A program made the position numbers and the translations under genes. This document shows, one piece after another, positions 2,521 to 61,592 of a DNA stretch of 64,000 bases. Where the stretch lies: IMG/VR virus record IMGVR_UViG_3300036942_000148, positions 1 through 64,000 of that record. One strand, given 5' to 3'. Source of the DNA: a virus. Taxonomy: Duplodnaviria; Caudoviricetes. The notes under the pieces are model-generated. The model ran no database searches. It saw only the letters and a program-made list of their open reading frames with translations, and was not told where the DNA came from. Position 1 is the stretch's first letter. Each line of letters opens with the position of its first letter.

Positions 2521-2928
2521 TTGAATGAATTATTAAAGAATTATTATCAAGATATGATGAGTAACTTAAAGACATTATATCCTGATAAAAGTAGAGAAGA
2601 ACTAAAAAAGTATATTAATCAAGCTACCAATAAGAAAAATATGGTTGATCCTACTATTGATTATGTGAATAACTATAAGAATACTAAAAAAGAAACTACG
2701 TTATTCAATATGACTGATAGTATATTGAAAAATGAACCTATTATTAGTGGTTATGGAACTTTATTTAAGAATCATGACGAAGGAATAAACTTGATAGCAG
2801 AGATGTTAAATTTTCTATTATCCGAAAGAAAAGTTGAGAAAGGAAAACTATTCGAAGCCATCCAAGAAAATGATGAATTAGGTATAGAATTACATGATAG
2901 AGGTCAGAAGACACTTAAGTTACTTGCT
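2521..2928 (+). CDS. family B DNA polymerase, C-terminal subunit, exon 1
   Basis: Ends QKTLKLLA; joined to exon 2 gives motif B KLLANSFYG; motif A absent, so the enzyme is split as in phiKZ/AR9-like phages. Confidence 0.9.
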
Positions 2929-4142: not shown

Positions 4143-5666
4143 AACTCATTTTACGGTGTGACTTCTGAACAAAACTCTATATATTTCAATAAATACTTGG
4201 GAGCTTCTATCACGTATACTGGTGTTACTATCATTACAGTATCCATAATGGCTTTTGAGAATTTCTTAGCTGATAATGTTCCCTATAAGAATTTAGATCA
4301 GATCATTAAGTATATCACCAATATTACTAATGAAGAATATAATTATAAATATGAAGATCTTTTTGATGTCGAATTTAATATTGATTCTGATATTATGATG
4401 GAAAGAATATTAGATAAGACTCACGAAGATTATGCAGTTACCGATAAAGATAAAGAAATAATTAGAAACCTATTAGATAATCTTTCATATGAAGAATTAG
4501 TAAAGATATACTTTAAAAATAATTTTTTAGATATGATAGATATGTCTAATGTTTTAAGTGAATTATTAGAAAATATAGGTATTAGGGAAGATTTTAATGA
4601 TCCTAATGAAGCACCTGAAGATATAATAGAAGAGTTAGATAAGATGTGGGATATACTAAAAGATTGGGTATTTTATGATCATATTCCTATTGATCGATAT
4701 CATAGATGTATTAATGATATGAGAGAAGCAGTTCTTGTGACCGATACGGATTCTACATTTTTATCATTACACAAGTGGTATCAATATATATCTGATAAAT
4801 TTAATTTTGTTAATCCGTCATTAGAAAAACAAGTAGGTGGTATTAATATATTAACTTACATTTTATCTTACCTAATACAAGACGCATTAGATAGAATGAC
4901 TGAAAATATGAATGTACCTGATAATAAGCAACACATAATACAGATGAAGAATGAATTTTTATATAAAACCCTTATGCTGACAAGGAATAAGAAACAATAT
5001 AGCGGAAGTCTAATTGCCAGGGAGGGCAATATTCTTCACGAAAAGGAAACTGATATTAAAGGATTAGCTATTAAGAAATCATCTACTAACGAATATACAA
5101 GAGAATACTTTACAGAGTTGCTAGAAGATGAAATATTGAATGCTGATGAGATAGATCTCTCCTCCATATTAAATAAATATAAAGAATTTGAGGACATAGT
5201 TAGAACCAGTTTAACTGAAGGAGAAGTAACTTTCTCACTTCCACAAAAATTAAATGAAGAGTCAGGATATAAATTTCCATTTAGAATGATGCAATATAGA
5301 GGGTCTATACTATGGAATCATTTATATCCAGAAAAATATATTGATGCTCCAACTAAAGTTAACACACTTAAACTGACAGCAGATAATGAAGAAGATATAG
5401 AGAGATTGAAAGAAGATAACTATGAAATATATGAGAAATTAACTGAATTTGTCTTTGATGATGAAGATATGGCTCATTATGGATTTACTACCATATCAAT
5501 GCCTAAAGATGTGACAAAAGTTCCAGAATGGATTATCCCGTTCATTGATGTAGAGACTTTAGTAGGAGATAATATTAGAAACGCCATCATTCTGTTAGAA
5601 TCATTAGGTTTCCAAACATTAACAGTACTAGGTAGAGATTATTATTCCAATATAATCAGTTTTTAA
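4143..5666 (+). CDS. family B DNA polymerase, C-terminal subunit, exon 2
   Basis: NSFYG (motif B), VTDTDST (motif C), KKQY and KGL motifs; spliced product about 643 aa. Confidence 0.92.
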   Translation, partial: NSFYGVTSEQNSIYFNKYLGASITYTGVTIITVSIMAFENFLADNVPYKNLDQIIKYITNITNEEYNYKYEDLFDVEFNIDSDIMMERILDKTHEDYAVTDKDKEIIRNLLDNLSYEELVKIYFKNNFLDMIDMSNVLSELLENIGIREDFNDPNEAPEDIIEELDKMWDILKDWVFYDHIPIDRYHRCINDMREAVLVTDTDSTFLSLHKWYQYISDKFNFVNPSLEKQVGGINILTYILSYLIQDALDRMTENMNVPDNKQHIIQMKNEFLYKTLMLTRNKKQYSGSLIAREGNILHEKETDIKGLAIKKSSTNEYTREYFTELLEDEILNADEIDLSSILNKYKEFEDIVRTSLTEGEVTFSLPQKLNEESGYKFPFRMMQYRGSILWNHLYPEKYIDAPTKVNTLKLTADNEEDIERLKEDNYEIYEKLTEFVFDDEDMAHYGFTTISMPKDVTKVPEWIIPFIDVETLVGDNIRNAIILLESLGFQTLTVLGRDYYSNIISF

Positions 5667-5822: not shown

Positions 5823-6449
5823 ATGGCAAATTATTTAACAAAGAAAAGGTATTACAATAATGAGTGTGGTCAATTACAATTAGGATCATTTACAGATGAC
5901 GAAACTAAAGAAATTACACTGTTCATTAGCATCGTCCCTGTAAAAGAAGAATACAAGGGTCAAAATCCTAGCAAAGGTGTCCAGATGTACGATTATGACG
6001 GAACAGTATTTTTCTCCATTGATAATGAAGATAATATTAAACTATTAAAAGCATTAGAAATGTTAAAGAAAGATATGCAATTTGAATACGTGATTGAACA
6101 CAATAAGAAACGACTAATCATTGGATTTGATGGGGATACAAAGTATATCGTAAATAAAGATAATAAGAAAAATAAAACAGCTAAGTATATATTTAAGATT
6201 ACTGATGAAATTAATTTAAAGAATGATGACAGAACTGTGCTAATTGAAACTGACTTAGAAGAAGTATATAGATACTTTAAGCATAATGATGCTCTTCTTT
6301 ACAGACAGAATCAATTGATCAACCCTAGAAGTAATAATAGTTCTTCTTCTAATAGATCACGTTCAAGTAGTAGTTCTAGTAATAATAAGAGTAACAAATC
6401 GGTTATTAAAAATATTGACGATGATGAGATTGATAACTTCTTTGGTTAA
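5823..6449 (+). CDS. putative single-stranded DNA-binding protein
   Basis: Beta-rich core, Ser/Asn linker, acidic-aromatic tail DDDEIDNFFG, directly after DNA pol. Confidence 0.45.
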   Translation: MANYLTKKRYYNNECGQLQLGSFTDDETKEITLFISIVPVKEEYKGQNPSKGVQMYDYDGTVFFSIDNEDNIKLLKALEMLKKDMQFEYVIEHNKKRLIIGFDGDTKYIVNKDNKKNKTAKYIFKITDEINLKNDDRTVLIETDLEEVYRYFKHNDALLYRQNQLINPRSNNSSSSNRSRSSSSSSNNKSNKSVIKNIDDDEIDNFFG

Positions 6450-6528: not shown

Positions 6529-7212
6529 ATGATAGAAGGTATTTCAAAATCAATGATACAAGACAAGAACTACACTCTAGTTACTGATATGGATGAGGTC
6601 ATTACCAATATATCACCTTATTGGTACAAGTTACTATTAGATAATAAAGATATTTTTGGAAAATATTTAGATTTAAATAAAGCTAAAACAGTAGAAGAAG
6701 TTATGCAAAGAAATCATTATTATCTTAATAAGTGGTTGATTAGAGATGGTTATGAAGATCTACCAGATAAAGAAATGGCTCAATTCCTAGCACTTTATCT
6801 CCAAGAAGACTTCTATGATAACTGCGTGTTGACTTCCTTTGGGACTGGACTTAAAAGTTTAAGCCACAAGGATTGGGTGGATAAGATATATATTGTTTCT
6901 CATACAATCAATGGTCAGGATCATAGAAAAGAAAGGTTTCTAAGAAATAATAATTTTAATTTAAGTAATATTGAATTAATTATGGTTGACGGTGAAACTC
7001 CTAAGTCAGAGATCATCAACAAGCACAGTATAGATTACAACACATTCGTAGATGATAGACCTAAAATTTTAGAAGACGTGATTAAAAATACTAATTCGGA
7101 TGGGAAAGAATTCTTATTTCCATTTTTAGGTTACAATATAGAGAGTGAATTGATAGAGGAGTTGAGTAAATCTCATAGATTTGATTTACAGGGATACAAG
7201 AAAGTATTATAA
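6529..7212 (+). CDS. HAD-family 5'(3')-deoxyribonucleotidase-like protein
   Basis: LVTDMDEVI (motif I DxD), IVS (motif II), FVDDRP (motif IV). Confidence 0.75.
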   Translation: MIEGISKSMIQDKNYTLVTDMDEVITNISPYWYKLLLDNKDIFGKYLDLNKAKTVEEVMQRNHYYLNKWLIRDGYEDLPDKEMAQFLALYLQEDFYDNCVLTSFGTGLKSLSHKDWVDKIYIVSHTINGQDHRKERFLRNNNFNLSNIELIMVDGETPKSEIINKHSIDYNTFVDDRPKILEDVIKNTNSDGKEFLFPFLGYNIESELIEELSKSHRFDLQGYKKVL

Positions 7213-10055: not shown

Positions 10056-10068
10056 CTCACAGTTTAAA

Positions 10069-10078
10069 TATATATTAT
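10069..10078 (+). promoter_or_regulatory. putative early promoter TATATATTAT
   Basis: Motif match upstream of small gene. Confidence 0.6.
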
Positions 10079-10142
10079 ATTAATGAATAAAAATAATTAG
10101 GAGGGATTATTTATGTTTGAAGAATTAACTTTAGTTTAAATT

Positions 10143-24075: not shown

Positions 24076-24111
24076 AGTATAGAGGTTGCAACGGTCAATT
24101 TAACATTTTGA

Positions 24112-26865
24112 ACTGAGGTTCTGTCCTGAAGGTCCCGAATAAGAAGAAGCGCCCATTGATTGGACTTCGATAAAAGGATTCAGAATAGAATATTCATTCA
24201 CATTAGGTTGGTCTAAAATAGATTTTACAACTTCATCTTTCTTAACTGATATGTTAACATCAGTATTTCCACCACGTCTAGCATCTTTATATTTTCTAAA
24301 AGCATCTGCCATAGATTTATAAAGAATAGCGTTAACTTGTTCTGCTCCACGGAGTCTATAATTTTCCATACTATTCTTATCTTTATAAGCATTATTAGTT
24401 AATAACTCATTAGCGTAAAGCAACACTCCCACGATATCAGTAGGTTGATCTAAATCTTCTAACACGTCTTCAGTAATGGGATCAATGAATAAATCCATGA
24501 TGTTATTAAATGTTTTACCTTTTAATCTACTTCCATATAAATCTTGGAAGAAATCTAAATAAATAGTCTTTTCATTTAATTTATCGAATTCTACTTCTTT
24601 AGTGGGAGGCTCATAAAGTCCATTAAGAAGCATACTATTTCTAAATGGTTCGTTAGAATAATATAAATAACCATCTGCAAATTCCACCATGTTATATTTA
24701 GAATCTTCTTTGGGAGGTAAATTCTTCTTATCTTCAGTAAATTCATAATCAATATCATACCTATCTAAAACATTTTCTAAACCTTCATAGAAGCCTAATA
24801 ATAAAATAGTAGGAACTTTTACGTTACCAGTTCTCACTCTACTATATACAAATCTATTACCAGCATTTTTACTATTTACTTTAGCATCAATATCTTCATC
24901 AAACTCAGAAATCAAGTTAGTTATAGTGGAATATAAATTACTACCTATATCATTTTTCTTATTACCATTCAAATAAGTAGAGAATACGTTGAATTCTTTC
25001 TTATTCATCACCAATAGCTCTTTATCTTCATCGTTATAACCAAGAACTATCAGATCCTTATCATCTTCAACTTTGTCCAGTGCTTTGGTGTAATCTACTT
25101 TTTGTTTGTTTTCTATTTTTTCTATAACTTTAGATCTATCAAAGAATATATAATTATCTCCAATCTTAATTGAAATCATGTATTGAGATAGATCGTCATA
25201 TTCCAGTGGATTATTATAATCTTCATTATTCCTCAATGCGTTTCCTTTTTCTACAGTTATTCTATTATAGTTCTTGATTTCTTCCACATTATCTACTAAT
25301 TGCTTTCTAAGCTTAGTCATATTCTCACTGACATTAGTTCCAAACCTATTCATAAACATCTTACTGTAATTGCTAACCATCTGAACTTCATCTGGGTTGA
25401 TCTTAGTAATAGGTTTAGGGAATATCTGCTTCTTGATGAATTTCTTACCACCATTGATATAGAAGAATTGACCGTTCTCTACAATAGGAACATCTACTGA
25501 AACGGTATGAGTTTGTCCGTTAACATCAGAAAACTTTATAGTGTAAGTTTCTTTCTTATTGAACTCGTCAGAAGTATCATCTTTTTCGAAACTTTCAAGG
25601 TAGACAGGAAATTCTTTATCATCATTGAAACCAGTAAGAATTGCAGCTTGATCCTGTTCGAATTGCTTTTCCATATAGTTTCTATCAAAATCTTTCATAG
25701 TAGATTGCTTCAGATCTTCATTGATCACGTCAGCTTCTATATTTTCCTTATCTATTTTTTTAGCTTGAAAGTTTTCTAATATTTCTTCTATAGTCTTTCC
25801 AGAATCCATTTTAATCTTAGCTTGTTTGTCAGATAATTCATCTTTCCTCTTATCTAACACTTTCTGTTGATTGTTAGATATTCTCTTTTCATTAACTTTC
25901 TCTATATATTTTTTAAATTCTTCGTTATCTTTTAAGTTTTCTATGATTTCATCCTCATCAACTTCCTGCTCACCTTCAGGAACTTCCTCATCAACTAGTT
26001 GTCTCACTTTCATGAAGTGTTCATTATTAGAGTTAATATCAAATAAATCAGATATCCTTCTAGCTATCTCATCTTTTATTCTTTCCTTACCTTCTTCATC
26101 TTCTGTCTGTTTTTCAACTTCTTGAGTTTTTTCAGTCTCATTATCTTGCTTAATATTATTCATAAACTTTTCTAATTGTGTATTAAATCTAGCACGGTTT
26201 ACTTCCCCGTCTATCTTAAACTTCATCCACAATTTTTCTCTAGAGTTGTACAAAACAAAAGTGATATTTTCGAACCTTCTGTTCAATAGGTTCCTAGTAT
26301 TAACCCATTGGTAGATAAATGATAGAGGATGAGTGAGATTACTCCTATCGCTGTAGTCATAATATTCATTAACAGGAACTATGCAGTAAGCATTATCTCT
26401 ATGAGGAACTTTATTTTCATCTAATACTTGGTGTAAATAGTCTTCAAACATATTCACTTTCCGTTTCTTCTCGTACATCACCCTTTGGAAGAAACCATTT
26501 ATATTAGGAGAAAGGTCATAAAAATAATTAATATCTTCATAGCTATCTAAGTTCCTTTTAGTCGTCTTTATATATTGGAAATTCTTCTTTAAATATTGGT
26601 AGTACTTCCTCCTATCGACTCTTATTTTAGTACCTCTAATTAGATCAGAATCTATATATCTATTAACGTAATAACCAGTTATTAATCTAGGGTAAAATAG
26701 TTCATTCTTTATCAAATCTTCTAAATCAGTTTTCTCTTTAGAAAGATTAAAAATTACATAATTATCATCATTATCTTTATCGTTAAAGATAAGTTTGTTA
26801 TAATTATATAAGTATAAATTTTTCAACTTTTTTATAGAATACACTAAATATGCACTTCCTTTCAT
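24112..26865 (-). CDS. rpoB: RNAP beta exon 1 (with long N-terminal extension)
   Basis: VDVP..GQFFYINGGKKF, NYRLRGAE, LNPF.EV, GPSG; spliced beta is 4152 nt, 1383 aa. Confidence 0.9.
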
Positions 26866-35479: not shown

Positions 35480-35606
35480 TTATATTTAACAACTCCTTTT
35501 TAATCATGGTGGTTTAATGTTAGACTAAGAGATTTCAACCAGTAAGTGATAGGTGGGAAAGAGAATAATAACACCATACTGGAGTCTATTTAAGCTTACC
35601 ATAATT

Positions 35607-35616
35607 ATAATATATA
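35607..35616 (-). promoter_or_regulatory. putative early promoter TATATATTAT
   Basis: Motif match on minus strand. Confidence 0.6.
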
Positions 35617-35637
35617 TTTAAAATATCTTTTAATGTT

Positions 35638-43621: not shown

Positions 43622-46600
43622 TTAACCTGTTGCTATTTTATCTTCATACTTTGTATTCTTACTTCCAGAAACGTTACCGTCATTCATATTTCCAAATAGC
43701 ATACTGATAGCGCTCTGAAGTGAATTCTGTTCCTGTTCTGTTTCTGATTTATTTATCATTTGAACTAATTGAGTTAGAATATCGACTTGTTGTGAACTTA
43801 AGTCTTTAATATCTTGTTCTTCACCAAGTCTATTTTGAAGGTCTTCTCTTAAATTATCATTTATTTCTTTATTAAAATTCAAGAGTTCCTTAGTAACCTC
43901 AATCAATTCTTTCTTAAGCTGTCTATCTTCTTCGTTCATCTCGTTGCTAGCTTTGATAGTTTCATTGACAGCTGCAAGTACTTCACCATCTTTAGTATAT
44001 TTATCTACATAGTCACTAGTAGAAGTAGACCTAGCGGTTGTTTGTTCTTGATCATAAAGAGCTAATACATTTTCAAGCTCATTACCTTCAGATCTTTTTC
44101 CTAGAAGTCTATTATAAACTCCTTTTTGAACCGCAGAACTACTACTACTGAAGTAAGCTAACTCGCCATCTTTATTTCTTTTACCTCTTTCATTATAGAT
44201 AGCTTTTATAATATCTTTATCTGACATATCACTAGTTATTCCAGCATTATTAATTAGACTAGTTCCAGCACCATGCTGAACAGCTGTGGAGAATACTGCT
44301 TCTCTTAAAGCTTTACTTTTATTATCTAAATCAATACCCAATTCACTTTTAAATCTTCTTTTCATAGGATCGTAATGGGATTCTTTTATAAATTGACTTT
44401 GCAAGGCTCTGAATCTTTCAGGGTACTTTTTAGCAACTTTTCTCCAATTCTTATCAAAATCATCACTAGTAATGGCAACTTTCCTATTCCTCTTATTCCT
44501 AGTAGTGCTTGGATCTGTATTTAACATCAATTCATTATAAATAGCTTTATCTTTATTGGGAAGAAAATTATTTACAAATGAGTGTAATGTCTTTTGCTTT
44601 GAGGACAGCTGATAGGGACCATAAGACTTTCCACCATGATCTCCTCTACCAGAACTAATAATTCCTGCTCCCGCTCCACCTGATTCATAATGCGAAGCTA
44701 TATCACCCATATTGTAAGATTTACCTGTAACTGTTTCGAGATTAGAATTTTCTGTATTTATAGAATGGTTATTTTTTGGTTCATCTTTACTAAATGGGTT
44801 TATTTTATTAATCCAACTTCCAGCACCATCTTTAACCTCTTGGAGTTTGTTAGTGAAGAAGTTAGATATACCAGTACTGAAAGAACTGAATGACTCAATG
44901 ATACTAGTTTTATCTTTCTGAGCTTTAGCTATTTCAGAGTCTTCTTCATCTCCACCAATATTAATGAATGGAAGTTTATTTAATCCATCAATCATTCCAT
45001 CTTTAATTTCTCCCATTCTATTCTTGATATCATTCCATTTATCCTTAATTCCACCAAAAACAGATGAGATACTTCCAGTAATAGTAGATATTACGGAGAA
45101 TATAGAACTAGGCATGAATCCAAGTAAACCACTCCATAAAGCACCAGTAACTCCACTAAAGTACCAACCAGCAGACATTCCATTGATTAAACCAGAAATT
45201 CCAGACTGGTCTTTCAATTCATCATTTACATCACTTTCTTTTCTATCTTGTAGGTCATCTCTCTCAGTAAATGATTTCTTAAGTGAAGAAAACTTATCTG
45301 TTATAGAGTCGTACATATCTTTCATCTTATTACCAACAACAACTCCAAGATCTACTAGCTTAGTAGCACCGAATCCACCGAGTGCCGCACCTAGTATGGT
45401 TCCTATACCTGGCATTAGCATTGTTCCTAATGCTCCACCGACTAATGCACCAGAGATGCCTGTTGCACCTTTCATAACCATTATTCCCTTTTCTTCATCC
45501 GAACTTTCTTTAAAGTTTTCCTTAATACTTTCAACTTTATCAGAAACAGTATCTTTCAACCATTCTACGCCTGATTTTAACTTCTTACCTAACTTTTCTG
45601 TGATATCTATTATACCTACTGTTCCTATAGCTCCAATTCCTGCACCTAAAACTGTTCCTATACCTGGCATTAACCCCGTTCCTATGGCTCCACCAGTAAG
45701 TGCTCCTGCTAATACAGTAGATATTTCTCCAAAAGATTTCATTCTTTCATCTTTATCTTCTGATTCTAGCCCATTAAACATATCAGTTACTGTGTCTTTT
45801 AACCATATAGTTCCACTAAGAATTCCGGTTCCTAATGTAGAAACATTATCTACTATACCCTTTGGACCCATATAACCAAGTATTCCACCAATAGCAGATC
45901 CTACTGGACCACCAAAAGGAAATCCTGCAGTGGCACCTAGTATTAATCCTCTAAGTCCATCAGTTTCATACATTCTTTCCATTATAGTAGATTCATCATC
46001 TTTTTCACTGCCACCTAATAATCCATTAGCCATGAAATTAGTAAAGTCTACAAACTTATCTCCAACTGCTTTAAATGCATGTGATGTTTTTTCACCACCA
46101 ATATATCCTAATCCAGCGCCTAATGCTGCACCAAGGCCAAAACCTACAGGAGTTGCAACACCGAATGATCCAATACCAGCGATTGCTCCACCTGCCATTC
46201 CCCATTTTATAGCGTTTTTAACAATATTTGAAGTATCATCTTCTGAACCACTGAAAAATGCTCCTATTCCAGAGAATACTTTATTACTTCCTGTATTTTC
46301 TTCAAACCAATCATCTGCTTTTCCAAGACCTTTAAAGAAATCAAGTACTCCCATTATTCCAGCACCAATACCAGATGCATTTAATAATAATGATCCAGCT
46401 CCTTGTAAAGCTGAGTTAGCTATGATTCCACCTAAAATACCGCCGCCAGCTTCTCCCGCTGTATCACCCATTAGTGTTCCTATAAATTCTCCACTAGTAT
46501 CACCAATAAGAGTTGCACCTAATTCAGCACCAATATCAGAGAATAAACCATCTCCTTCTCCGTCACCTGTGATCTTACCAATTCCTTTATTTATACTACC

Positions 46601-49600
46601 TAATAATTTATTTTCAGTTTTTTCTATTTCTAATTCTTCATTAGCTCTAGCTTGTCTTCTTTTATCTGCCCAGCTATCTTTATTAATTCCAGAAGAGTTA
46701 CTAGATTTAGATGTATCTATTCTAACTACTTCTTTTACTTTATCTAATACTCCACCTTCAACATATACACTTCCTAGACTTTTTCTTTTATCTCTTCCGA
46801 TTACTTTAGATACTCCACTAGAAAGCATGCCTAATCCATCACGTACTAGGCTTCCAGTAGCTTTTGCAAACGACATCACTGTCTTTCCAGCTTCAAAGAA
46901 AGCATCCTTAAGGATATCTAATCCATTGAATAGTCCGTCAACAACAGTATCTACAGCTCTTCCAAAATACTCCACAGTTTTAACAGCGCCCTTGATAGCT
47001 CCTTTAAATGTTTCTCCAATAAGAGTTCCAAGGGGTTTAATTACAGAGTCTTTCAAGAAAGAACCTGCTGTTGTAATGACTGATTTTCCAACATTGTAGA
47101 CTTCAACAATGACTGCTTTAGAAACGTTATATATCTCTTTTATTCCTTTTTCTAATCCTTTAACAAGACTAGTTACACCCTTAAGAGTTTTAACTATAGG
47201 ATCTATGAATATTCTCTTTAAATTATTCTTTATCCCTTTAAAAACTCCACCGATGGCATTTTTAACCCATTTAACTGGATGTGTAACTACGCCTTTAACG
47301 AAGTCTTTAGCTTTACCAATCCAACTACTTCCAGCTTTACCCTCTTGAGCAGGATCAGCACTAGGGTCTCCTAAACCTCTAGTATTGAGTTCAATTTGTT
47401 TTAATAATTCTTCATTTTTATTAGTATTTTTATCAATATTAGCTAATCTATTAGAAATAGTGCTTTCTGAATCGATTCCAATAGCTTCCTTGATGAAATC
47501 TGAATTATTAGATATTACATCTATTTTTTCATTATTATCTATATCTCTATCTTTTATAGTATCTATCACATCAGAAACCTTAGTTGTAATAGTTTCTTTA
47601 ACGTCTGATAATTTAGTAGTTGTCTTATCTTTAATATTAGCAGACATATCTTTGGCTGTTCCAGTCACTGCACTTGTCATGTCTTTCATACCATCAATAG
47701 CTTTTAAAGCAGAGTCTTTAGCACTATTAGTTAAATCTCCACCTATATCAATGCTAAACGGAGAAAAGTCAGAATCCTTAGCTGAAGAAAATACTTTACT
47801 TACTGTATCAGAGAAACTTTTCCTTAAATCATTATCAACTAACTTATCTCCAATAGCTTCTTTCAAAGCTCCACCCTTTTTAATTATAGATTCATTATCT
47901 TCATCACCGAAGATAGCAGTTGTAAGATCTTTTCCAAAGCCTTTTAGTTTATCCATAGCTTTAGTTAAGATTCCTTCATCACCAAATACTCCTTCTCTAA
48001 ATGCTTTAGTTTGAGTTACCAATCCAACTAAACCACCGATTAAAGGACCTCCTGGTAAGAAGAATGATGCTAATAAACCAGAGCTAACTCCAGTTATTCC
48101 TCTTTTCTTCAGATCATCTTTACTACTTCCTAATTTATCTATCAATCCTTCTTTATCTTTAGAACCGAATACTGCTTCTTTGAACACGTCAGTTTGTGTT
48201 GCTAATCCTAGCATTCCACCAAGAACAGGTCCACCTGGCATTCCCATCCAAGCTAATGCACCTACGCCAGCACCCATTCCTCTTTGTTTCATATCTTCTT
48301 TACTTAAACCAATGCTAGTAGCAATACCATCTTCACCAAACATGAAATCATCGAAGTATTCAGTTTGAGTAGCTATACCTAATAAACCACCAATCACTGG
48401 TCCACCTGGAAGTACTAGGCTTGCTAACGCACCTCCACCTGCACCTATTCCTAGTTGTTTTAATTTATCTCTAGAAATATTGATTGAAGTTAGAATTCCA
48501 TCATCACCAAACATGAAATCTTTGAACTGGTCAGTTTGAGTTGCTATACCTAATAAACCACCAATCACTGGTCCACCTGGCATACTTAAGCCTACTAAAG
48601 CACCTACTCCACCAGATATACCCATTTTCTTAGCTTGTTTCTCATCTATTCCACGTTTAGTGAGTTCTCCATCTTCACCGAATAGGTAATCTTTAACTAT
48701 TTCAGATTGACTAGCTACACCTAATAGGGATCCTAATAAAGGTCCACCAGGCATTATTAATCCAGTTAAAGCACCTACTCCAGCACCAATTTTAACTCCT
48801 TGAATACTATCTTCGTTGTAACCTATTTTATTCAAGAAACCTTCTTCATCTTCAGTTCCAAATAAAAATTCTTTAGCTTGATCTGTCTGAAGTGCGAAAC
48901 CAGTTAAGGCTCCTAATAGTGGTCCACCTGGTAGTATGAAACTAGATAAGACTCCTATACCAGACGATATTCCAGCTTTCTTAAGGTCTTCCTTATCACT
49001 CATTCCAATTTTATCTAAGATACCAGTATCTTCATCGCTTTCACCGAACAACCAGTTTTGAACTGATCTAGTATTGAAAGCTAAGCCACCTAATGCTCCT
49101 AATAGTGGTCCACCTGGCAATATAAAACTAGATAGAATACCAACCCCACTTGAAATACCAAGCTGTTTGAATTGATCTTTTTGATCATCACTAGCGAATT
49201 TGAACATCGATTTCTTAGGATTATCAGGATCTATTTCATCGCCTTTGTCCCCAAAGAGGAAATCTTTGGTACTAGAAATCATATCTTTCATTTCATCTGT
49301 CCTAGAGAATAGTCCTAATCCTGCTCCTATTAGTGGACCACCTGGCAGGAATAGTGACAATGCTCCACCTATCCCAGCTGCTTTGGCATATTCTCCGTTC
49401 AACCAACCAGTTTTATCATCATCATCTTCAGCATTCTTGTCACCGAACATGAATTTCTTGAGAGAAGTTTTTAATCCATCAAAACTATCAGCAAAATTTC
49501 CGAAGAGACCTTTAATTCCAAAAGGAGACCACCCGCCTAAATCAGGAGAATCGATGTCGAGTCCTTCAGGAGTGTCCATTCCAAATAATAAATTTTTAAA

Positions 49601-51835
49601 CCCAGTTTTCATAGGATTAAATAGATTATCTTTCATGGAATCAATTAAAGAAGTTTTGGTTCCATCTTCGTGAGCAAAGAAGAGGTCAGTAATCTTCTGA
49701 TTCATAGGGTCTATCACGTTTTCACTTACAAAATCAAAAGGAGCGCTATACATCTTTTGAACTGATTCTTTTATAGCATCAATCTTTCCTTTTCCTCTAC
49801 TTATTTGATCCCCTAGGAAACCTGAATCTTCTTTATCTTCATTTTGGTTTTGCAGTCTTTCTCTTAACTTATCTGTGCTAGATTTCTTATCAGGCTTGTA
49901 AGTGGTAACCATTGAATTTTCTTCTTCATCTTTATTCTTACCAGCTATCCCTTTTATCTCATTTTTTCTAACGAGCTTTTCCATCTTTCCTTCGTCAAAA
50001 TCATCTTTGATCAATTCTCTAGTAACCAAGTCATCATCGTAACTTGAAAGAGAATAGTAAATTCTAGCAAGATACTTAGGAATCACATCGGTAACTGATT
50101 TAAATATTGATTTATTCTTACCACCAGAACCTTGTTGATCTTTAATATTATCTGTATCAAATGCAGCTGCATAAGTCGAACTTTGCCCAGCTTCAGTATA
50201 AAGGTCATTGAGATTTCTGTTACCTTCCATTATTCTCTTTTGCATTTGGAACATTTCATCATTATCTAAATCGTTCCAGTAGTTTTTCATTAATCCCATT
50301 TGATCTTCATTTAAATTATAATCTTCAGCACTGTAGTTTTTATCATTAGGATCGAACATTTTTCCTGCTTTAGATATATTAGTGAATATCTCATTTAATT
50401 CTTCCTTTTCTTCATCAGACATCCCATATCCAAATCTACTAGAAGCATCAGTTAATAGACTTCCACCTGCTTCTTTTTGTTCCTTTTCTCTAAATTCTTT
50501 TTTAATATTCTTCTTAGTAGTAAATGCGCCTTTATCATAATCGTACACTAATTCACTAGAATCCCCTCTAACTGCTGAAAGTATCTTAGAAAGAAGAGAA
50601 GGAATGGTGTGAGTGATAGAACGCTTAGTAATCCCGTCAAAAGGAACTGCACCTTTTTCGTATCCTCCAAAATCAGGACCGCTTTGCATAATGTCTCCCA
50701 CACCCATTACATCTAATATCTTCTTAAAGAATTTATTATCAGTGGAATCTTTCAATCTTTCCATCTGTAATAAGAATGTTTGTGGTAGACTATTTATGAT
50801 ACTATCAAATTGCTGGAGGGAATCTTTAAATCCTTCAGGAATCATATTATCAAATATAGCAGTCATAGCTCTCCCTACTGGGTTAGCTACAATCTCTTTA
50901 ATTCCCATCTTGATCATATCAGCCATGCCACCACCGCTAGTGGCACTTTGAGTCACATATTTGAAATATTCTAAGAAATTGAACGAACCATCGGAACCTA
51001 TTATTCTATTAATTGCTTTCTCTTTAGGTCCAGACCCTTTATCTTTTCCTATTCCAAAATAATTATTTCTTTTCTCAGTCTCATCAACCATCTTATTGAT
51101 ACTGGAATTCAAATCCTCGAAAGCTGTCAGTGAGCTTTCATAGAAACTGAGGGAAGTACTGTAATAATCCGTAGTGGTCTCTAATTGAAATTCTAACATT
51201 GTTCTAAGTACACTATTGGTCATAGTAATACTTCTATTAATATTAGAACCAATACTTAACACACTACCAGAAATAGATGCTCCAAGTTCCTGCATTTTTC
51301 CGGAAGTTCCTTGAGTAACATTCGTTACACTAACTGGGCTATTATTAACAGTTTGATTATTAATGGTGTTAGTTTGCTGATTTAAAGTCTTTTTATCATT
51401 CTTAGTTACATTGACTTTACCTTCATCTACTTCAGTACTAGTTCCCACATCAAACTCATCGTCATCGAAATCAAACTCACTCATGTCCATGTCAAAGAAA
51501 TCAGCCATAGCTTGTTCATTGGCTTCTTCTACTCTTTTTTGATTATTGAGTTGACCAGACTTCATGTCGGAAATCGCATTTTTAAGCAGATCAGAAGTAG
51601 ATTGCTTTGCAAAATCAATGTTTTCAGATACCTTCCCACTAGAACTACTAGACATGGATTTCTTTATACCTTCACTAATAGAATTAGCTTCTCTAATATT
51701 TTGTCTAATATCTTGACCTTTATTTATGATTGCTTCATTAGCTTCTATATTCTTAAATAGATTAGGTAAGTTACGCCTAGCAACACTCTTGAGAGTAAAC
51801 TTCAAACTTGATTTTAAATTTTTCCCATAACTCAT
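43622..51835 (-). CDS. tape measure protein with Gly-zipper repeats and C-terminal lysozyme-like domain
   Basis: 2737 aa, late promoter, next to baseplate genes; HYESG..GDHGGKSYGPYQL..AVFSTAVQHG. Confidence 0.85.
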   Translation of the reverse strand: MSYGKNLKSSLKFTLKSVARRNLPNLFKNIEANEAIINKGQDIRQNIREANSISEGIKKSMSSSSSGKVSENIDFAKQSTSDLLKNAISDMKSGQLNNQKRVEEANEQAMADFFDMDMSEFDFDDDEFDVGTSTEVDEGKVNVTKNDKKTLNQQTNTINNQTVNNSPVSVTNVTQGTSGKMQELGASISGSVLSIGSNINRSITMTNSVLRTMLEFQLETTTDYYSTSLSFYESSLTAFEDLNSSINKMVDETEKRNNYFGIGKDKGSGPKEKAINRIIGSDGSFNFLEYFKYVTQSATSGGGMADMIKMGIKEIVANPVGRAMTAIFDNMIPEGFKDSLQQFDSIINSLPQTFLLQMERLKDSTDNKFFKKILDVMGVGDIMQSGPDFGGYEKGAVPFDGITKRSITHTIPSLLSKILSAVRGDSSELVYDYDKGAFTTKKNIKKEFREKEQKEAGGSLLTDASSRFGYGMSDEEKEELNEIFTNISKAGKMFDPNDKNYSAEDYNLNEDQMGLMKNYWNDLDNDEMFQMQKRIMEGNRNLNDLYTEAGQSSTYAAAFDTDNIKDQQGSGGKNKSIFKSVTDVIPKYLARIYYSLSSYDDDLVTRELIKDDFDEGKMEKLVRKNEIKGIAGKNKDEEENSMVTTYKPDKKSSTDKLRERLQNQNEDKEDSGFLGDQISRGKGKIDAIKESVQKMYSAPFDFVSENVIDPMNQKITDLFFAHEDGTKTSLIDSMKDNLFNPMKTGFKNLLFGMDTPEGLDIDSPDLGGWSPFGIKGLFGNFADSFDGLKTSLKKFMFGDKNAEDDDDKTGWLNGEYAKAAGIGGALSLFLPGGPLIGAGLGLFSRTDEMKDMISSTKDFLFGDKGDEIDPDNPKKSMFKFASDDQKDQFKQLGISSGVGILSSFILPGGPLLGALGGLAFNTRSVQNWLFGESDEDTGILDKIGMSDKEDLKKAGISSGIGVLSSFILPGGPLLGALTGFALQTDQAKEFLFGTEDEEGFLNKIGYNEDSIQGVKIGAGVGALTGLIMPGGPLLGSLLGVASQSEIVKDYLFGEDGELTKRGIDEKQAKKMGISGGVGALVGLSMPGGPVIGGLLGIATQTDQFKDFMFGDDGILTSINISRDKLKQLGIGAGGGALASLVLPGGPVIGGLLGIATQTEYFDDFMFGEDGIATSIGLSKEDMKQRGMGAGVGALAWMGMPGGPVLGGMLGLATQTDVFKEAVFGSKDKEGLIDKLGSSKDDLKKRGITGVSSGLLASFFLPGGPLIGGLVGLVTQTKAFREGVFGDEGILTKAMDKLKGFGKDLTTAIFGDEDNESIIKKGGALKEAIGDKLVDNDLRKSFSDTVSKVFSSAKDSDFSPFSIDIGGDLTNSAKDSALKAIDGMKDMTSAVTGTAKDMSANIKDKTTTKLSDVKETITTKVSDVIDTIKDRDIDNNEKIDVISNNSDFIKEAIGIDSESTISNRLANIDKNTNKNEELLKQIELNTRGLGDPSADPAQEGKAGSSWIGKAKDFVKGVVTHPVKWVKNAIGGVFKGIKNNLKRIFIDPIVKTLKGVTSLVKGLEKGIKEIYNVSKAVIVEVYNVGKSVITTAGSFLKDSVIKPLGTLIGETFKGAIKGAVKTVEYFGRAVDTVVDGLFNGLDILKDAFFEAGKTVMSFAKATGSLVRDGLGMLSSGVSKVIGRDKRKSLGSVYVEGGVLDKVKEVVRIDTSKSSNSSGINKDSWADKRRQARANEELEIEKTENKLLGSINKGIGKITGDGEGDGLFSDIGAELGATLIGDTSGEFIGTLMGDTAGEAGGGILGGIIANSALQGAGSLLLNASGIGAGIMGVLDFFKGLGKADDWFEENTGSNKVFSGIGAFFSGSEDDTSNIVKNAIKWGMAGGAIAGIGSFGVATPVGFGLGAALGAGLGYIGGEKTSHAFKAVGDKFVDFTNFMANGLLGGSEKDDESTIMERMYETDGLRGLILGATAGFPFGGPVGSAIGGILGYMGPKGIVDNVSTLGTGILSGTIWLKDTVTDMFNGLESEDKDERMKSFGEISTVLAGALTGGAIGTGLMPGIGTVLGAGIGAIGTVGIIDITEKLGKKLKSGVEWLKDTVSDKVESIKENFKESSDEEKGIMVMKGATGISGALVGGALGTMLMPGIGTILGAALGGFGATKLVDLGVVVGNKMKDMYDSITDKFSSLKKSFTERDDLQDRKESDVNDELKDQSGISGLINGMSAGWYFSGVTGALWSGLLGFMPSSIFSVISTITGSISSVFGGIKDKWNDIKNRMGEIKDGMIDGLNKLPFINIGGDEEDSEIAKAQKDKTSIIESFSSFSTGISNFFTNKLQEVKDGAGSWINKINPFSKDEPKNNHSINTENSNLETVTGKSYNMGDIASHYESGGAGAGIISSGRGDHGGKSYGPYQLSSKQKTLHSFVNNFLPNKDKAIYNELMLNTDPSTTRNKRNRKVAITSDDFDKNWRKVAKKYPERFRALQSQFIKESHYDPMKRRFKSELGIDLDNKSKALREAVFSTAVQHGAGTSLINNAGITSDMSDKDIIKAIYNERGKRNKDGELAYFSSSSSAVQKGVYNRLLGKRSEGNELENVLALYDQEQTTARSTSTSDYVDKYTKDGEVLAAVNETIKASNEMNEEDRQLKKELIEVTKELLNFNKEINDNLREDLQNRLGEEQDIKDLSSQQVDILTQLVQMINKSETEQEQNSLQSAISMLFGNMNDGNVSGSKNTKYEDKIATG
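47975..49385 (-). repeat. eight tandem PGGP glycine-zipper repeats in the TMP
   Basis: G.G.L....(L/M)PGGP(L/V)(L/I)G...G...T....(L/M/V)FG x8. Confidence 0.85.
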
Positions 51836-51981: not shown

Positions 51982-53070
51982 TTAAATATACTCTTCACCT
52001 TCAAAAATTTCTTCTAATTTTAAAGGTGTTCTATATTTTCCAGAAAAATATTTATCATTGATATATCTCAATGCCTGACCATCTACTTTATTCACAATTT
52101 GATTGTCGATGGATGCTTTCATCTTTTCATTCATCAAGTTATTGATTTCTCTATGTGAAATTTGTTTGAATGACTTTCTTAATCTTTCTTTCTGATTGTC
52201 CACAAACTCATCTTCAAGATCTCCAATGAAGTCATTTATATCTAAATACTCTATATTACTAATCTTTTCATCATCAATCCATTTTTGTATTTTATTAGAA
52301 GAACGAATATAACCATAACCATTTAAACCTTGAATATTATACCTTTTGTAACCCACTAAACTAAAAATAATAGGTAATAACTCTGGTATAAAAGTATATT
52401 CATCATAATCTTTCTCGGTAAGTTTAGGGATAATATCTTCTTTTTCTAATACTTCAGAATTATCTTGCTTACAAGTCAAAACTATAGTATCATCTAATAA
52501 GGCATTCTGCCAAGAAAGTTTAGTATTGTTCAATATGACATTCAATTGATTTTCCTTATGGTAGTTAGTTATAAAATATCTAGGAAAACCTTCAGGATCG
52601 AACTCTTTAGTATTGATGAAATAGACATTAGGTATATAGTTCCCGATAGTTTTAGATAGTTTAATATTCTTCTCCATTATAGAATTTATGTTAGAGAATT
52701 CTGGGTTATCATCGTTGATTCTTTTAGCATAATAATCCTTTTTATATTCTCTATTGATTTCTTTCAGTTTATCACATTCTCTGGTGGAGTAATAAAAGTA
52801 GAATGTAGTGTAAGTTTGATGTCTCGACCAGAAGTATCTCCTATAATGAGCCGCAATATTGAGTAGTTCTACTGTTATTAGGAACTTCTCACTATTATTC
52901 ATAGTGTTAAAGTGTTCAATAGTTCTTGGATTATAAATACTGTTCAATAGTGAATAGATATCGATATAAAATACTACGTCATCCTTTTCTTCGGGTAAGT
53001 ACTTCGGGAAGAAATCGTTAAGTATATTATATCTTATCTTTTTTGAATTTAATATCTTTTCAAGTATCAT
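51982..53070 (-). CDS. putative PIN-fold 5'-3' exonuclease / RNase H-like protein
   Basis: VFYIDIYSLL, TTFYFYY, YKKDY, H3TH-like YNIQGLNGYG; acidic catalytic set only partly evident. Confidence 0.45.
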   Translation of the reverse strand: MILEKILNSKKIRYNILNDFFPKYLPEEKDDVVFYIDIYSLLNSIYNPRTIEHFNTMNNSEKFLITVELLNIAAHYRRYFWSRHQTYTTFYFYYSTRECDKLKEINREYKKDYYAKRINDDNPEFSNINSIMEKNIKLSKTIGNYIPNVYFINTKEFDPEGFPRYFITNYHKENQLNVILNNTKLSWQNALLDDTIVLTCKQDNSEVLEKEDIIPKLTEKDYDEYTFIPELLPIIFSLVGYKRYNIQGLNGYGYIRSSNKIQKWIDDEKISNIEYLDINDFIGDLEDEFVDNQKERLRKSFKQISHREINNLMNEKMKASIDNQIVNKVDGQALRYINDKYFSGKYRTPLKLEEIFEGEEYI

Positions 53071-53096
53071 TTTAATTATCCCTTCCTTTCACTATT

Positions 53097-53106
53097 ATAA
53101 TATATA
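53097..53106 (-). promoter_or_regulatory. putative early promoter TATATATTAT
   Basis: Motif match on minus strand. Confidence 0.6.
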
Positions 53107-53122
53107 CTTATAAATCCAATTA

Positions 53123-53662
53123 CTATATATTAGTAATGTTAGTTCCGTCAGCTCCTGCTACTCTATCTTGATTTTGATAGGTTCCTATATCTTTATATAA
53201 ATTTTCTATGTTCCCAGTATTTTCCATGAGAACTAATTGACAGATAGCTTTTCCTGCTTTAATTTTAATTGGTAGATTATTAGCGTTAAATAACTCTAAA
53301 GTAAGTTTACCTTCAAACCCAGGATTAACAAAACCTGCATTTTGAATGAATAACCCTAGTCTTCCAATGGATGATTTCCCTTCGATTAACGTGGAAATAG
53401 AGTTTGGGAAAGATACGTATTCTTTAGTGGTTCCCAATATGAAACTCTTACCGGGTATGAATATCTCATCTTTCTCTATCTCTTCATACTCAATTTCTTT
53501 ATCCAAAGTGATAATCTCATTGCTTTCTTTCATCTTTAAGTATTTATTATCTAAATGTAAATCAATTGAAGAACTTTGCAACTGTTTGCCAGGATTATAA
53601 GGATCTATTCTAAGCTTTCTATTCTTAATGTATGTTTTAATTTCTTTATCAGTTAATACCAT
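53123..53662 (-). CDS. dcd: dCTP deaminase
   Basis: QSSSIDLHL, GKSSIGRLGL, NAGFVNPGFEGKLTLE, ICQLV, YQNQ. Confidence 0.92.
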   Translation of the reverse strand: MVLTDKEIKTYIKNRKLRIDPYNPGKQLQSSSIDLHLDNKYLKMKESNEIITLDKEIEYEEIEKDEIFIPGKSFILGTTKEYVSFPNSISTLIEGKSSIGRLGLFIQNAGFVNPGFEGKLTLELFNANNLPIKIKAGKAICQLVLMENTGNIENLYKDIGTYQNQDRVAGADGTNITNI

Positions 53663-53693
53663 TATTAAAATCCCCCTCAGAATTTAATTTTTG

Positions 53694-53705
53694 TATTATT
53701 TTGTT
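53694..53705 (-). promoter_or_regulatory. late-type promoter AACA-N6-TA
   Basis: AACA AAATAA TA. Confidence 0.65.
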
Positions 53706-53725: not shown

Positions 53726-53761
53726 AAAATAAAAAGAGATAATCAATTAAGATTATCTCTT
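53726..53761 (-). terminator. intrinsic terminator
   Basis: AAGAGATAATC/GATTATCTCTT then T-tract on minus strand. Confidence 0.75.
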
Positions 53762-53823
53762 CTTCAATACGAATGAGTAATATTCTCTATTTATTTGTCC
53801 GTTACTCTCGGGCAAATGGATAT

Positions 53824-53943
53824 TTACATAATGCTATATAAAATACCTTTGTGTTCATTTTCTTTATTGAAAAGGCTTCCACTACATTTAGAGCAATGAA
53901 CCCTTCCTGAACGATTATTTGTATTGCAATCTTTGCAAATCAT
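53824..53943 (-). CDS. 39-aa zinc-ribbon microprotein (absent from ORF track)
   Basis: AAGGAGG RBS; MICKDCNTNNRSGRVHCSKCSGSL... Confidence 0.75.
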   Translation of the reverse strand: MICKDCNTNNRSGRVHCSKCSGSLFNKENEHKGILYSIM

Positions 53944-54000: not shown

Positions 54001-54942
54001 TTATAAAACCATTTCATCGATATCAATAAAAGCATCTAATGTTTCTTTTGCTTTCTTTTCTTTCTCTTTCTTAATTTCATCTAATTTATTATTTAATCTT
54101 TGGTACTCTTCTTTATAATGTAATAAATTTTCTTTATGAATCTCTGTTCTTTCTTTTAAATCATTTAATTTTTTCTGATCTGGATTATCTTGTTTCTCTA
54201 AAATAGAAAGTTCTTTTTTAATTCTTTCCATTTTAGCCTTTTCTCTACCTTCTGCTCCATCTAAACTTTTTAAATCTCTTTTAATTTCTTGTATTTCTTC
54301 ATATAATTCTAGTTCTTCCTGTTGTAATTGTTCCCATTTCTTCTGTTTTTCATTCTTAGCATTTTTTAATTCTTCGTTCTTACCCTCTAGTTGTCTAGAA
54401 ATTTTTAACATTTCCATTTCAAATTTCTCAGGGTCAGCATCAAAGTCAAGATTTTCAACTTCTCTATTGATTTTTTCATATTTTTTAGTATCAGCTAATA
54501 TCTTGTCTAATTCTTTTCTTCTTTTCTTTGAATCTTTTAATTGTCTCTTAGCTAGATCATTAACTTTTTTATTAGTAGTTTCTAACTTCTTAGATTCTTG
54601 TTCTGTTTTTTGTATGCTCTTTTCTACTTTTTTATTGGATTTAATATCTTTCTCTGTTTTATCAGCTTTTCCAAATATCTTTTCTTTAATCTTCTTGAAA
54701 AAGTTCTTAATCATATCTAGTAACTTTTTAACCTGATCTTTGATCCAATTAATAACGTCTCCAATTTTACCTTCTAATAATTCTTCATCTTCATTGACAA
54801 TAGCTTGATGTTCTATTAACATGAACTTTTGAATCATACTATAATCTTCAATTAACATCTTGTTGAATTCTTCTGTTAATTGATATATTAAAGGATCTAT
54901 ATTAATATCCTCTTCTAAGTATGGATCATTATCTAAAAACAT
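54001..54942 (-). CDS. putative internal head protein (MFL-family), coiled coil
   Basis: MFLDN start, MLIEH, LLEG-KIGDVINWIKD. Confidence 0.6.
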   Translation of the reverse strand: MFLDNDPYLEEDINIDPLIYQLTEEFNKMLIEDYSMIQKFMLIEHQAIVNEDEELLEGKIGDVINWIKDQVKKLLDMIKNFFKKIKEKIFGKADKTEKDIKSNKKVEKSIQKTEQESKKLETTNKKVNDLAKRQLKDSKKRRKELDKILADTKKYEKINREVENLDFDADPEKFEMEMLKISRQLEGKNEELKNAKNEKQKKWEQLQQEELELYEEIQEIKRDLKSLDGAEGREKAKMERIKKELSILEKQDNPDQKKLNDLKERTEIHKENLLHYKEEYQRLNNKLDEIKKEKEKKAKETLDAFIDIDEMVL

Positions 54943-55016
54943 AATTATCATCCTTAATTGAAAATTTATATTAATTAACCTTTTCTACAATATTACATTA
55001 AATTACCCTATTATAT

Positions 55017-57388: not shown

Positions 57389-57464
57389 ATTTTTATATGT
57401 AGGGATTTGATTGTTTTTATCGAATAAAATAAATAAGGGTGCATAGTTTAAACTATAATTTAAA

Positions 57465-57474
57465 TATATATTAT
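57465..57474 (+). promoter_or_regulatory. putative early promoter TATATATTAT
   Basis: Motif match. Confidence 0.6.
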
Positions 57475-57530
57475 TATTCTGATAGAGAATAATTTTATAT
57501 TAAAAACTAATAAGAGAGGAGGAAATTACA

Positions 57531-60796: not shown

Positions 60797-61535
60797 AGAA
60801 TTTGAATATATTAAAAAAGTTATGAAAGCACTTCAAAGACATAGAAATGACATGAATCATGAAATATTTGGAATATTCTTAACTAATATTGATACTGAAA
60901 TTTTAGAAACTATTATTGATGAAATAATTCCATACTACGAACAAGATTTAACAGAAAGAGGACTTGAAGATGCCACTAAATACTATGCCTCCTCTTATTT
61001 TGAATATTTAAGGCTATTAATGGGGTTAGTTCATTATAAAAAAGAAGATAAAAAAGTAAATATTAAAAATTTAGAATTATTAAATGAAAAGAAACTTCCT
61101 CATAAAATCTTAAAAATGGCTACTAATGATTATGAAAAAATGGATCTTAATAATGTAACCAAGAGATGTATTAAAATAATGTTAGGTTTATTTAATTCAG
61201 ATAAGAAGATATTAAAACCATATATAGAAAGTAATTTTGCCAAAGAATTAATTACCGAGACCATTGCTGGAAACGCTCAGTTTTGTGAAATATTAGAGTA
61301 TGATTTTGATGATGCGTATACAAATAATAATTTTCAATATGAAGAATTTGAAAAAGTTTTTCTCGAAAGTATAGCTGATTTACATCCAATGAGTAAATCT
61401 AGATTTGTGAGAAATGCTTTTAATAATTCGGATTTTGAAAATGAAACTGCAGGAATTCCATTAGTAGGTATGATAAAGAAGAGTAAAGATGAAAGAATAA
61501 AGAAAGCATATTTAGAACAAAAACTAAAAGTTTAA
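60789..61535 (+). CDS. hypothetical protein
   Basis: 248 aa, coupled to upstream gene. Confidence 0.8.
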   Translation: MSKEFEYIKKVMKALQRHRNDMNHEIFGIFLTNIDTEILETIIDEIIPYYEQDLTERGLEDATKYYASSYFEYLRLLMGLVHYKKEDKKVNIKNLELLNEKKLPHKILKMATNDYEKMDLNNVTKRCIKIMLGLFNSDKKILKPYIESNFAKELITETIAGNAQFCEILEYDFDDAYTNNNFQYEEFEKVFLESIADLHPMSKSRFVRNAFNNSDFENETAGIPLVGMIKKSKDERIKKAYLEQKLKV

Positions 61536-61536
61536 A

Positions 61537-61546
61537 TATATATTAT
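61537..61546 (+). promoter_or_regulatory. putative early promoter TATATATTAT
   Basis: Motif match. Confidence 0.6.
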
Positions 61547-61592
61547 TTAAATGATAAAAATGAATTAACATTAATTATAGGAGAGTGATAAA

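Follow-up and report, generated by a model that had tools for sequence, protein, structure and literature searches.

An Asp-to-Asn dCTP deaminase in an AR9/PBS1-like jumbo phage as a candidate dUTP supplier for uracil DNA

The stretch of viral DNA considered here, hereafter the window, comprises positions 1-64,000 of the IMG/VR record IMGVR_UViG_3300036942_000148 and belongs to a 78.6-kb contig, on which some of the coordinates below are given. Its gene dcd (53123-53662, minus strand) encodes a 179-amino-acid (aa) dCTP deaminase with the dUTPase fold and a scaffold of the bifunctional type, in which an asparagine, Asn113, replaces a conserved aspartate. With a probability of roughly 0.55, this protein is a dUTP-forming, hydrolysis-dead deaminase which replaces the zinc-type dCTP deaminase (Dcd) of related phages and, along with the dTMP phosphatase Dtm, supports uracil DNA. 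The pathway as such is already known; dcd represents a variant of it, and the uracil-DNA reading is partly supported. Sequence features, fold, purifying selection, synteny, a Dtm homologue and the promoter grammar are the direct observations on which this account is built.

The dcd protein matches the Pfam family PF22769 (DCD) at 5.4e-41 and 140.7 bits (cut-off 27) and the NCBIfam equivalog TIGR02274 (dCTP_deam) at 164.9 bits (cut-off 92.8), and the 179-aa open reading frame (ORF) is thereby confirmed as the dCTP deaminase gene that a preliminary description, made from the letters of the window, had recognised at this place. Among solved structures, the top match in a sequence search is 4xjc (6.5e-38, 133 bits, 41% identity), whose aligned motif is VDPGF and whose bifunctional label is taken from the title of its Protein Data Bank (PDB) entry, 'dCTP deaminase-dUTPase from Bacillus halodurans'; E. 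coli Dcd (1xs1) scores 53 bits against the 133 of 4xjc. An AlphaFold monomer model, computed with an alignment of 65 sequences, has a pLDDT of 93.5, and Foldseek returns 4xjc as its first match in the PDB (TM 0.92, rmsd 1.3 Å). All seven top folds are bifunctional dCTP deaminase-dUTPases, 4xjc being followed by the enzymes of M. tuberculosis (Mtb) and M. jannaschii, while 1xs1 ranks below them with a TM of 0.91. Additionally, several of the nearest Bacillaceae homologues carry the source name 'dCTP deaminase, dUMP-forming'. Ser97/98, Arg101 and Glu123, on which deamination depends, are all kept and stand in columns conserved in 139-149 of 150 representatives; the catalytic glutamate, placed by alignment to PDB chains, is encoded at 53294-53296 (minus strand) and is E in 143 of the 150. 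These residues presumably correspond to Ser111, Arg115 and Glu138 of the E. coli enzyme.

Codon 113 (53324-53326, minus strand; att on the plus strand) is AAT and places Asn at the site of the water-activating aspartate, which is Asp119 in the Mtb enzyme and Asp128 in E. coli Dcd. The surrounding motif reads AGFVNPGFEGKLTLE, in agreement with the earlier remark that Asn replaces Asp in the DPG motif and that the catalytic Glu is preserved. This Asp binds the nucleotide 3'-OH and coordinates the water attacking the alpha-phosphate, and it has been described as indispensable for dUTP hydrolysis (Pecsi et al., PMC3360063). According to the same study, monofunctional deaminases retain the Asp, and their water site is blocked by Arg126, located two residues upstream and salt-bridged to Asp128, whereas bifunctional enzymes have Phe or Trp at the Arg126-equivalent position. 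The dcd protein has Phe111 there (53330-53332, minus strand), in a column which is aromatic in 128 of the nearest 150 representatives (W 77, F 36, Y 15) and Arg in none. Moreover, the hydrolysis-site residues Ser102 and Gln148 (Mtb numbering) are conserved as Ser97/98 and Gln142. In place of the Arg126 and Asp128 of E. coli-type monofunctional enzymes, the protein thus carries Phe111 and Asn113, and it is not classed as a functional bifunctional enzyme either, since Asn113 replaces the hydrolytic Asp. Judged from the alignments and the model, it appears to descend from the bifunctional, dUMP-forming branch, minus the hydrolytic Asp of that branch. Loss of the water-activating residue on such a scaffold leads to the prediction that the enzyme probably stops at dUTP instead of dUMP, and Asn at this site should be read as 'probably monofunctional'.

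With the bifunctional 4xjc, Rv0321 (2qxx, 2qlp) and M. jannaschii DCD-DUT (1ogh, 1pkh), the dcd protein shares the fold, a predicted trimer-type architecture, the deaminase residues, the aromatic residue at -2 from the Asp site and the hydrolysis Ser and Gln; the difference is the change of Mtb Asp119 to Asn113, with which the dUTP-to-dUMP half-reaction is predicted to be lost. With E. coli Dcd, it shares the fold and the predicted net reaction from dCTP to dUTP, but the latter combines Asp with the blocking Arg126, whereas Phe111 implies another route to the predicted monofunctionality. The Arg126 block also explains the caveat, raised in the preliminary description, that E. coli Dcd keeps the Asp and lacks dUTPase activity. 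In dUTPases, the equivalent superfamily residue has been changed from Asp to Asn in Mtb D83N and E. coli D90N, leaving ligand binding unchanged and lowering kcat/KM to 0.0002 of wild type (PMC5519681). These mutants bind substrate and scarcely hydrolyse it; however, they are engineered, monofunctional dUTPases, whereas Asn113 is natural, selected and located in a deaminase. The preliminary description also cited the D135N change of the bifunctional M. jannaschii enzyme, which is reported to have lost the diphosphatase and kept the deaminase activity. The earlier proposal that the enzyme makes dUTP without hydrolysing it therefore holds as the natural prediction from Asn113 on a bifunctional-type scaffold, the product itself being something that we infer.

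Asn113 is rare among the relatives of dcd. Of the 120 closest homologues, 116 have Asp at the aligned site, as do 134 of 150 diverse cluster representatives (about 11% being without Asp), and over the 30 columns conserved to at least 85% the dcd protein deviates at Asn113 only. The codons AAT for Asn and GAT for Asp are a single transition apart. In a protein database search, the sole close relative was P0002, encoded on a 1.6-kb contig of an independent ENA metagenome. It differs from dcd at 68 of 540 bases (12.6%); 47 codons have synonymous changes only and 12 have non-synonymous ones, and the AAT codon is kept. The predominance of synonymous changes indicates that dcd is under purifying selection, and the presence of AAT in an independent metagenome argues against a sequencing error. 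Asn113 is a natural, selected variant and not an error of assembly. A scan of IMG/VR with Dcd for close relatives having fuller genomes found none.

The genomic position of dcd points to the replacement of another enzyme. The dCTP deaminases of PBS1, phiR1-37 and roseophage DSS3_VP1 are all metal-dependent and possess the dCMP-deaminase (CDA) fold, and for the PBS1 orthologue of AR9 g221 the conversion of dCTP to dUTP has been shown (Li et al. 2025, PMC12697855). A PF00383 gene is found in each of AR9, S6, phiR1-37 and LPJP1, and PF22769 and PF00692 in none of them, whereas the present contig has PF22769 and, over its 78.6 kb, no PF00383. The gene order in AR9 and BpSp is NrdE-NrdF-g221 (the Zn deaminase)-g220, and in PBS1 the zinc-type dCTP deaminase likewise lies directly upstream of g220. 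Here, a homologue of AR9 g220 (51982-53070, minus strand; 35% identity, 3e-70) follows directly downstream of dcd on the same strand. The g220 family is confined to 19 of 50,697 phage records, all of them AR9/PBS1-, BpSp-, LPJP1- or S6-like (the Firmicutes jumbo-phage group), and an IMG/VR scan with the g220 alignment for fuller relatives returned AR9 itself only. The simplest reading of this synteny is that the zinc-type deaminase would have been displaced in place by dcd, an enzyme of unrelated fold with the same job.

As the folds are unrelated, the relation to the AR9-type deaminases is one of displacement and not of homology. The likeness of dcd to Dcd_PBS1/AR9 gp221 consists in the position immediately ahead of g220, in a related jumbo phage which also has a member of the Dtm family, and in the predicted reaction and role, namely dUTP supply. 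The difference is that gp221 has the metal-dependent CDA fold, whereas dcd encodes a metal-independent deaminase of the dUTPase fold, and sequence similarity between them is nil. An alignment of dcd with the AR9, PBS1 and phiR1-37 deaminases was accordingly ruled out, the enzymes there having the CDA fold and AR9 and phiR1-37 having no gene of the DCD/dUTPase family. The preliminary description had invoked the dCTP deaminase of PBS1 and AR9; the deaminase role stands, but the enzyme in question has the zinc-dependent CDA fold and is not a dUTPase-fold Dcd. Its link to uracil DNA likewise survives through the AR9/PBS1 lineage and the dTMP-phosphatase homologue, but not through homology to the PBS1/AR9 deaminases. 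Where AR9 has ribonucleotide reductase genes, the window encodes a 316-aa Lys/Glu-rich, coiled-coil-like protein (54001-54951, minus strand), which matches nothing in PHROG or Pfam and lacks a homologue in AR9.

The putative partner of the deaminase is a homologue of the PBS1/AR9 dTMP phosphatase Dtm (AR9 g151), encoded at 6529-7212 (plus strand) with 34% identity (2e-32) and with the HAD DxD motif kept (VTDMDEV). AR9 g151 is identified as the counterpart of Dtm_PBS1 by its termini, since it starts with MFSIKEP and ends with TEEKAV, the ends encoded by the Dtm_PBS1 primers in PMC12697855. The homologue has the position known from AR9, downstream of the DNA polymerase and ahead of the virion beta' gene; the polymerase catalytic subunit (AR9 g152 homologue, 2521-5666, plus strand, 41% identity) is present as two ORF pieces around an inserted Bro-N ORF. 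By tblastn, the Dtm family was detected in 21 of 50,697 phage records (the AR9/PBS1 group, BpSp, LPJP1, S6-like phages and phiR1-37), all 21 being known or presumed dU-DNA jumbo phages. Furthermore, no thymidylate synthase, dUTPase or dCMP deaminase was found on the 78.6-kb contig, which is about 31% of the genome, and AR9, S6 and LPJP1 are without ThyA. The DNA polymerase and the Dtm homologue are separated by a 208-aa ORF (5823-6449, plus strand) that has no counterpart at this place in AR9; a weak, below-threshold similarity to DUF5769 (1.4e-05) is the sole match.

The phage itself falls among the relatives of uracil-DNA phages. CheckV estimates a completeness of 31%, corresponding to a genome of roughly 250 kb, and the G+C content of the contig is about 28%. 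The contig encodes pieces of a multisubunit RNA polymerase (RNAP), a divergent family-B polymerase, GroEL, RusA and phiKZ-type virion proteins, and 33 of its 78 ORFs have AR9 matches in a largely kept order. The virion RNAP beta-like subunit (24100-26865, minus strand) places the phage in the AR9/S6/LPJP1/phiR1-37 clade, the closest proteins being those of AR9, PBS1, Internexus, BpSp, LPJP1, S6-like Staphylococcus phages and phiR1-37. In the RNAP beta tree, the phage lies inside a 100/100-supported clade of these dU-type phages, apart from phiKZ-like phages; AR9 is nearest, the inner branching order is weakly defined, and no phylogenetic bracket for uracil DNA was obtained. Known uracil-DNA phages are PBS1/2, AR9, S6 and phiR1-37 (PMC8150378), and LPJP1 behaves like one (PMC8460666). 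The contig is about 31% of an AR9/PBS1-like jumbo phage.

In the mechanism proposed here, a homotrimeric dUTPase-fold deaminase would derive from a bifunctional, dUMP-forming ancestor, Asn113 having replaced the Asp that holds the 3'-OH and activates water while everything required for deamination was retained. Once dCTP had been bound and deaminated, the enzyme would let go dUTP rather than dUMP. In this lineage it would stand in for an unrelated dCTP deaminase, that of the zinc type. While the Dtm homologue removed thymidylate, the deaminase would most likely provide the dUTP from which uracil-containing DNA of the phage is made. U and T are indistinguishable in sequence reads, and we infer the base composition of the phage DNA, as we do the enzyme's product. 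A fuller account, in which the Asp-to-Asn change uncoupled a bifunctional enzyme into a dUTP synthase that displaced the AR9-type zinc deaminase, with the sigma-like subunit reading the AACA late promoter through a Lys-Gln pocket in place of Val-Ile, stands at about even odds.

Another account, which must be regarded as doubtful though not remote, also takes dcd to be a monofunctional dCTP-to-dUTP enzyme but lets a separate phage or host dUTPase yield dUMP for thymidylate or a modified pyrimidine such as 5-hydroxymethyl-dU, and not uracil DNA. Several observations weigh against a role in uracil DNA, and some of them lean towards this account. Asn-type Dcd occurs in other settings, one representative lying among archaeal ribosomal genes on an archaeal chromosome, another on a bacterial contig and a third, P0218 (WINPGF), on the 13-kb phage contig L029, which is related to the clade, as its primase and virion-protein homologues indicate. 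In L029, an apparently intact trimeric dUTPase is encoded two genes downstream of the Asn-type Dcd (L029:2598-4012), both genes being flanked by those of an AR9 g225-like primase and an AR9 g165-like virion protein. The pairing fits an Asn form that would be unable to hydrolyse dUTP, and at the same time it shows that dUTP can be destined for dUMP. For the two phage Asn-type enzymes, the free tree gives no clear grouping, and although the data are compatible with a joint clade (p-AU 0.92), this is no proof of one. An IMG/VR scan with Dtm retrieved three fragments and one complete distant phage, with no deaminase of either type. The complete one, G004, is a distant jumbo-phage relative of AR9, 223.7 kb long and provided with terminal repeats; its genome contains neither a dCMP- nor a dCTP-fold deaminase, and its Dtm-like gene lies 2 kb from a thymidylate-synthase-family gene (contig 185502-186296 and 188203-188778). 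Thymine or a modified pyrimidine may be present in its DNA, and because of this phage neither membership of the clade nor a Dtm-like gene guarantees uracil DNA. The sigma-like subunit adds a further point. In AR9 gp226, Val206 enforces U over T, V206G admits thymine, the -10 uracil is wedged against Ile207, and the valine is reported to be invariant among dU phages (PMC9209446). The motif is D-x-V-I-W in AR9, LPJP1, S6 and phiR1-37, but the gp226 homologue of the present phage (contig 69221-70684, past the window end; 27% identity, 3e-42) reads YSDRKQW, in which Lys-Gln replaces the uracil-reading Val206-Ile207 while Trp208 and the aromatic residue at position 210 are retained. The uracil-reading pocket is thus not conserved in this phage; nevertheless, the Lys-Gln change does not show thymine tolerance, because the methyl-clash atom is C-beta, which is also present in Lys. 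Finally, no match to AR9 g104, the Ugi gene, was found on the 78.6-kb contig; phiR1-37 and S6 have no Ugi listed either (Table 1, PMC8150378). The unseen 69% of the genome may also encode a zinc-type deaminase, a thymidylate synthase or a dUTPase.

Against a separate dUTPase, it can be held that the bifunctional ancestor already yields dUMP, and that losing this step only to need a second enzyme brings no obvious gain. Moreover, the contig carries a homologue of a phosphatase that destroys thymidylate, the enzyme whose slot dcd occupies has been shown to produce the dUTP of dU-DNA, and neither a dUTPase nor a thymidylate synthase is seen on the 78.6 kb. It is unlikely that Asn is simply tolerated and the enzyme remains bifunctional, perhaps slower, boosting dUMP as in many ordinary phages. 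Such tolerance would agree with the roughly 11% of diverse representatives without Asp, with at least 13 losses of Asp on the Dcd family tree and with the retained hydrolysis residues Ser97/98 and Gln142, but the equivalent dUTPase change cuts catalytic efficiency about 5000-fold with binding unaffected, the Asp is regarded as indispensable for hydrolysis (PMC3360063), and the presence of a separate dUTPase in L029 would fit an Asn form incapable of hydrolysis. Very unlikely is a catalytically dead Dcd-derived regulatory or binding protein, or an Asn that arose as an assembly error. Trimeric dUTPases are reported to moonlight as signalling proteins in staphylococcal phages (PMC5593958); however, the other 29 conserved columns are intact, the deaminase Ser, Arg and Glu included, the structural model is confident and canonical, and the strong purifying selection and the AAT codon shared with an independent metagenome speak against both a dead protein and an error. 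The preferred reading, a dUTP-forming deaminase acting with Dtm in support of uracil DNA, cannot be drawn from the residue by itself. The preliminary description had offered Asn as a candidate marker of uracil-DNA, a specificity contradicted by the archaeal, bacterial and dUTPase-bearing L029 occurrences: Asn alone does not mark uracil DNA, and points to it only in company with Dtm, absence of Dut and ThyA, and membership of the AR9/PBS1 lineage.

It was only in 2025 that the enzymes making uracil DNA were identified, and the three deaminases that have been characterised all possess the zinc CDA fold. If the present reading is true, dcd would represent a further, structurally independent route to uracil DNA and a clean natural case of non-orthologous gene displacement, and it would provide a one-residue rule separating dUTP-forming from dUMP-forming members of a large family. 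Uracil-DNA phages are under-sampled owing to the failure of uracil-sensitive polymerases on their DNA, and a combination of Asn-type Dcd with Dtm, in genomes without Dut or ThyA, could serve as a screen for uncultured ones. Additionally, the altered gp226 pocket makes it possible to ask how strict the conservation of dU-dependent promoter reading is. In G004, the gp226 motif is KTLW.

The promoter grammar of AR9 can be recognised around dcd and along the contig. The AR9 promoter consensus sequences are AACA-N6-TA for late and AAATATATATTAT-N6-G for early genes (PMC5312081); recognition of the late element in AR9 takes place on the template strand, in the form 3'-UUGU-5', and is lost if position -11 or -10 holds thymine (PMC9209446). 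Upstream of dcd, all on the minus strand, are a Shine-Dalgarno-like GAGGGGGA (53671-53678) 8 nt before the ATG, a late-type promoter AACAAAATAATA (AACA-N6-TA, 53694-53705) 32 nt upstream of the ATG, and a terminator-like hairpin of 14 pairs with a T-run (53731-53764), which closes the preceding unit. Since the upstream unit ends at this hairpin, ahead of the promoter, dcd has a promoter of its own and would be transcribed as a separate unit from an AR9 late-type promoter. Just upstream of the terminator, a short ORF (53830-53943, minus strand) with two CxxC pairs, zinc-ribbon-like, has its own AGGAGG; AR9 has many small 'Zn finger protein' genes. The g220 homologue is preceded by an early-type promoter, AAGTATATATTAT-N6-G (53090-53109, minus strand), with one mismatch to the early consensus.

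Over the whole window, AACA-N6-TA is not enriched (58 occurrences against about 70 expected), and the signal emerges only once the location of each site and its direction with respect to genes are taken into account. The element is about 5 times denser in non-coding DNA, and within 120 nt upstream of the ORFs of the contig it occurs in the right orientation for 24 of 78 and in the wrong orientation for 3, against 7.3 +/- 2.5 in a shuffle control with a maximum of 16 in 500. The early consensus with N6-G is present in five exact copies and several with one mismatch, at sites that include the fronts of the g220 and gp226 homologues. In the window, the exact 13-nt sequence with N6-G lies at 10066-10085, 35600-35619 (minus strand), 57462-57481 and 61534-61553, and another exact copy is found at contig 69140-69159, just upstream of the gp226 homologue. 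The phage thus uses both the early and the late AR9 consensus, and in view of the exact early copies the specificity of the virion RNAP seems conserved with AR9 at only about 35% identity between the proteins.

Elsewhere in the window, a 2737-aa ORF (43622-51835, minus strand) has a G+C content of about 0.35, above that of the rest of the contig, and its match to the AR9 tape-measure protein g204 is confined to the ORF end.

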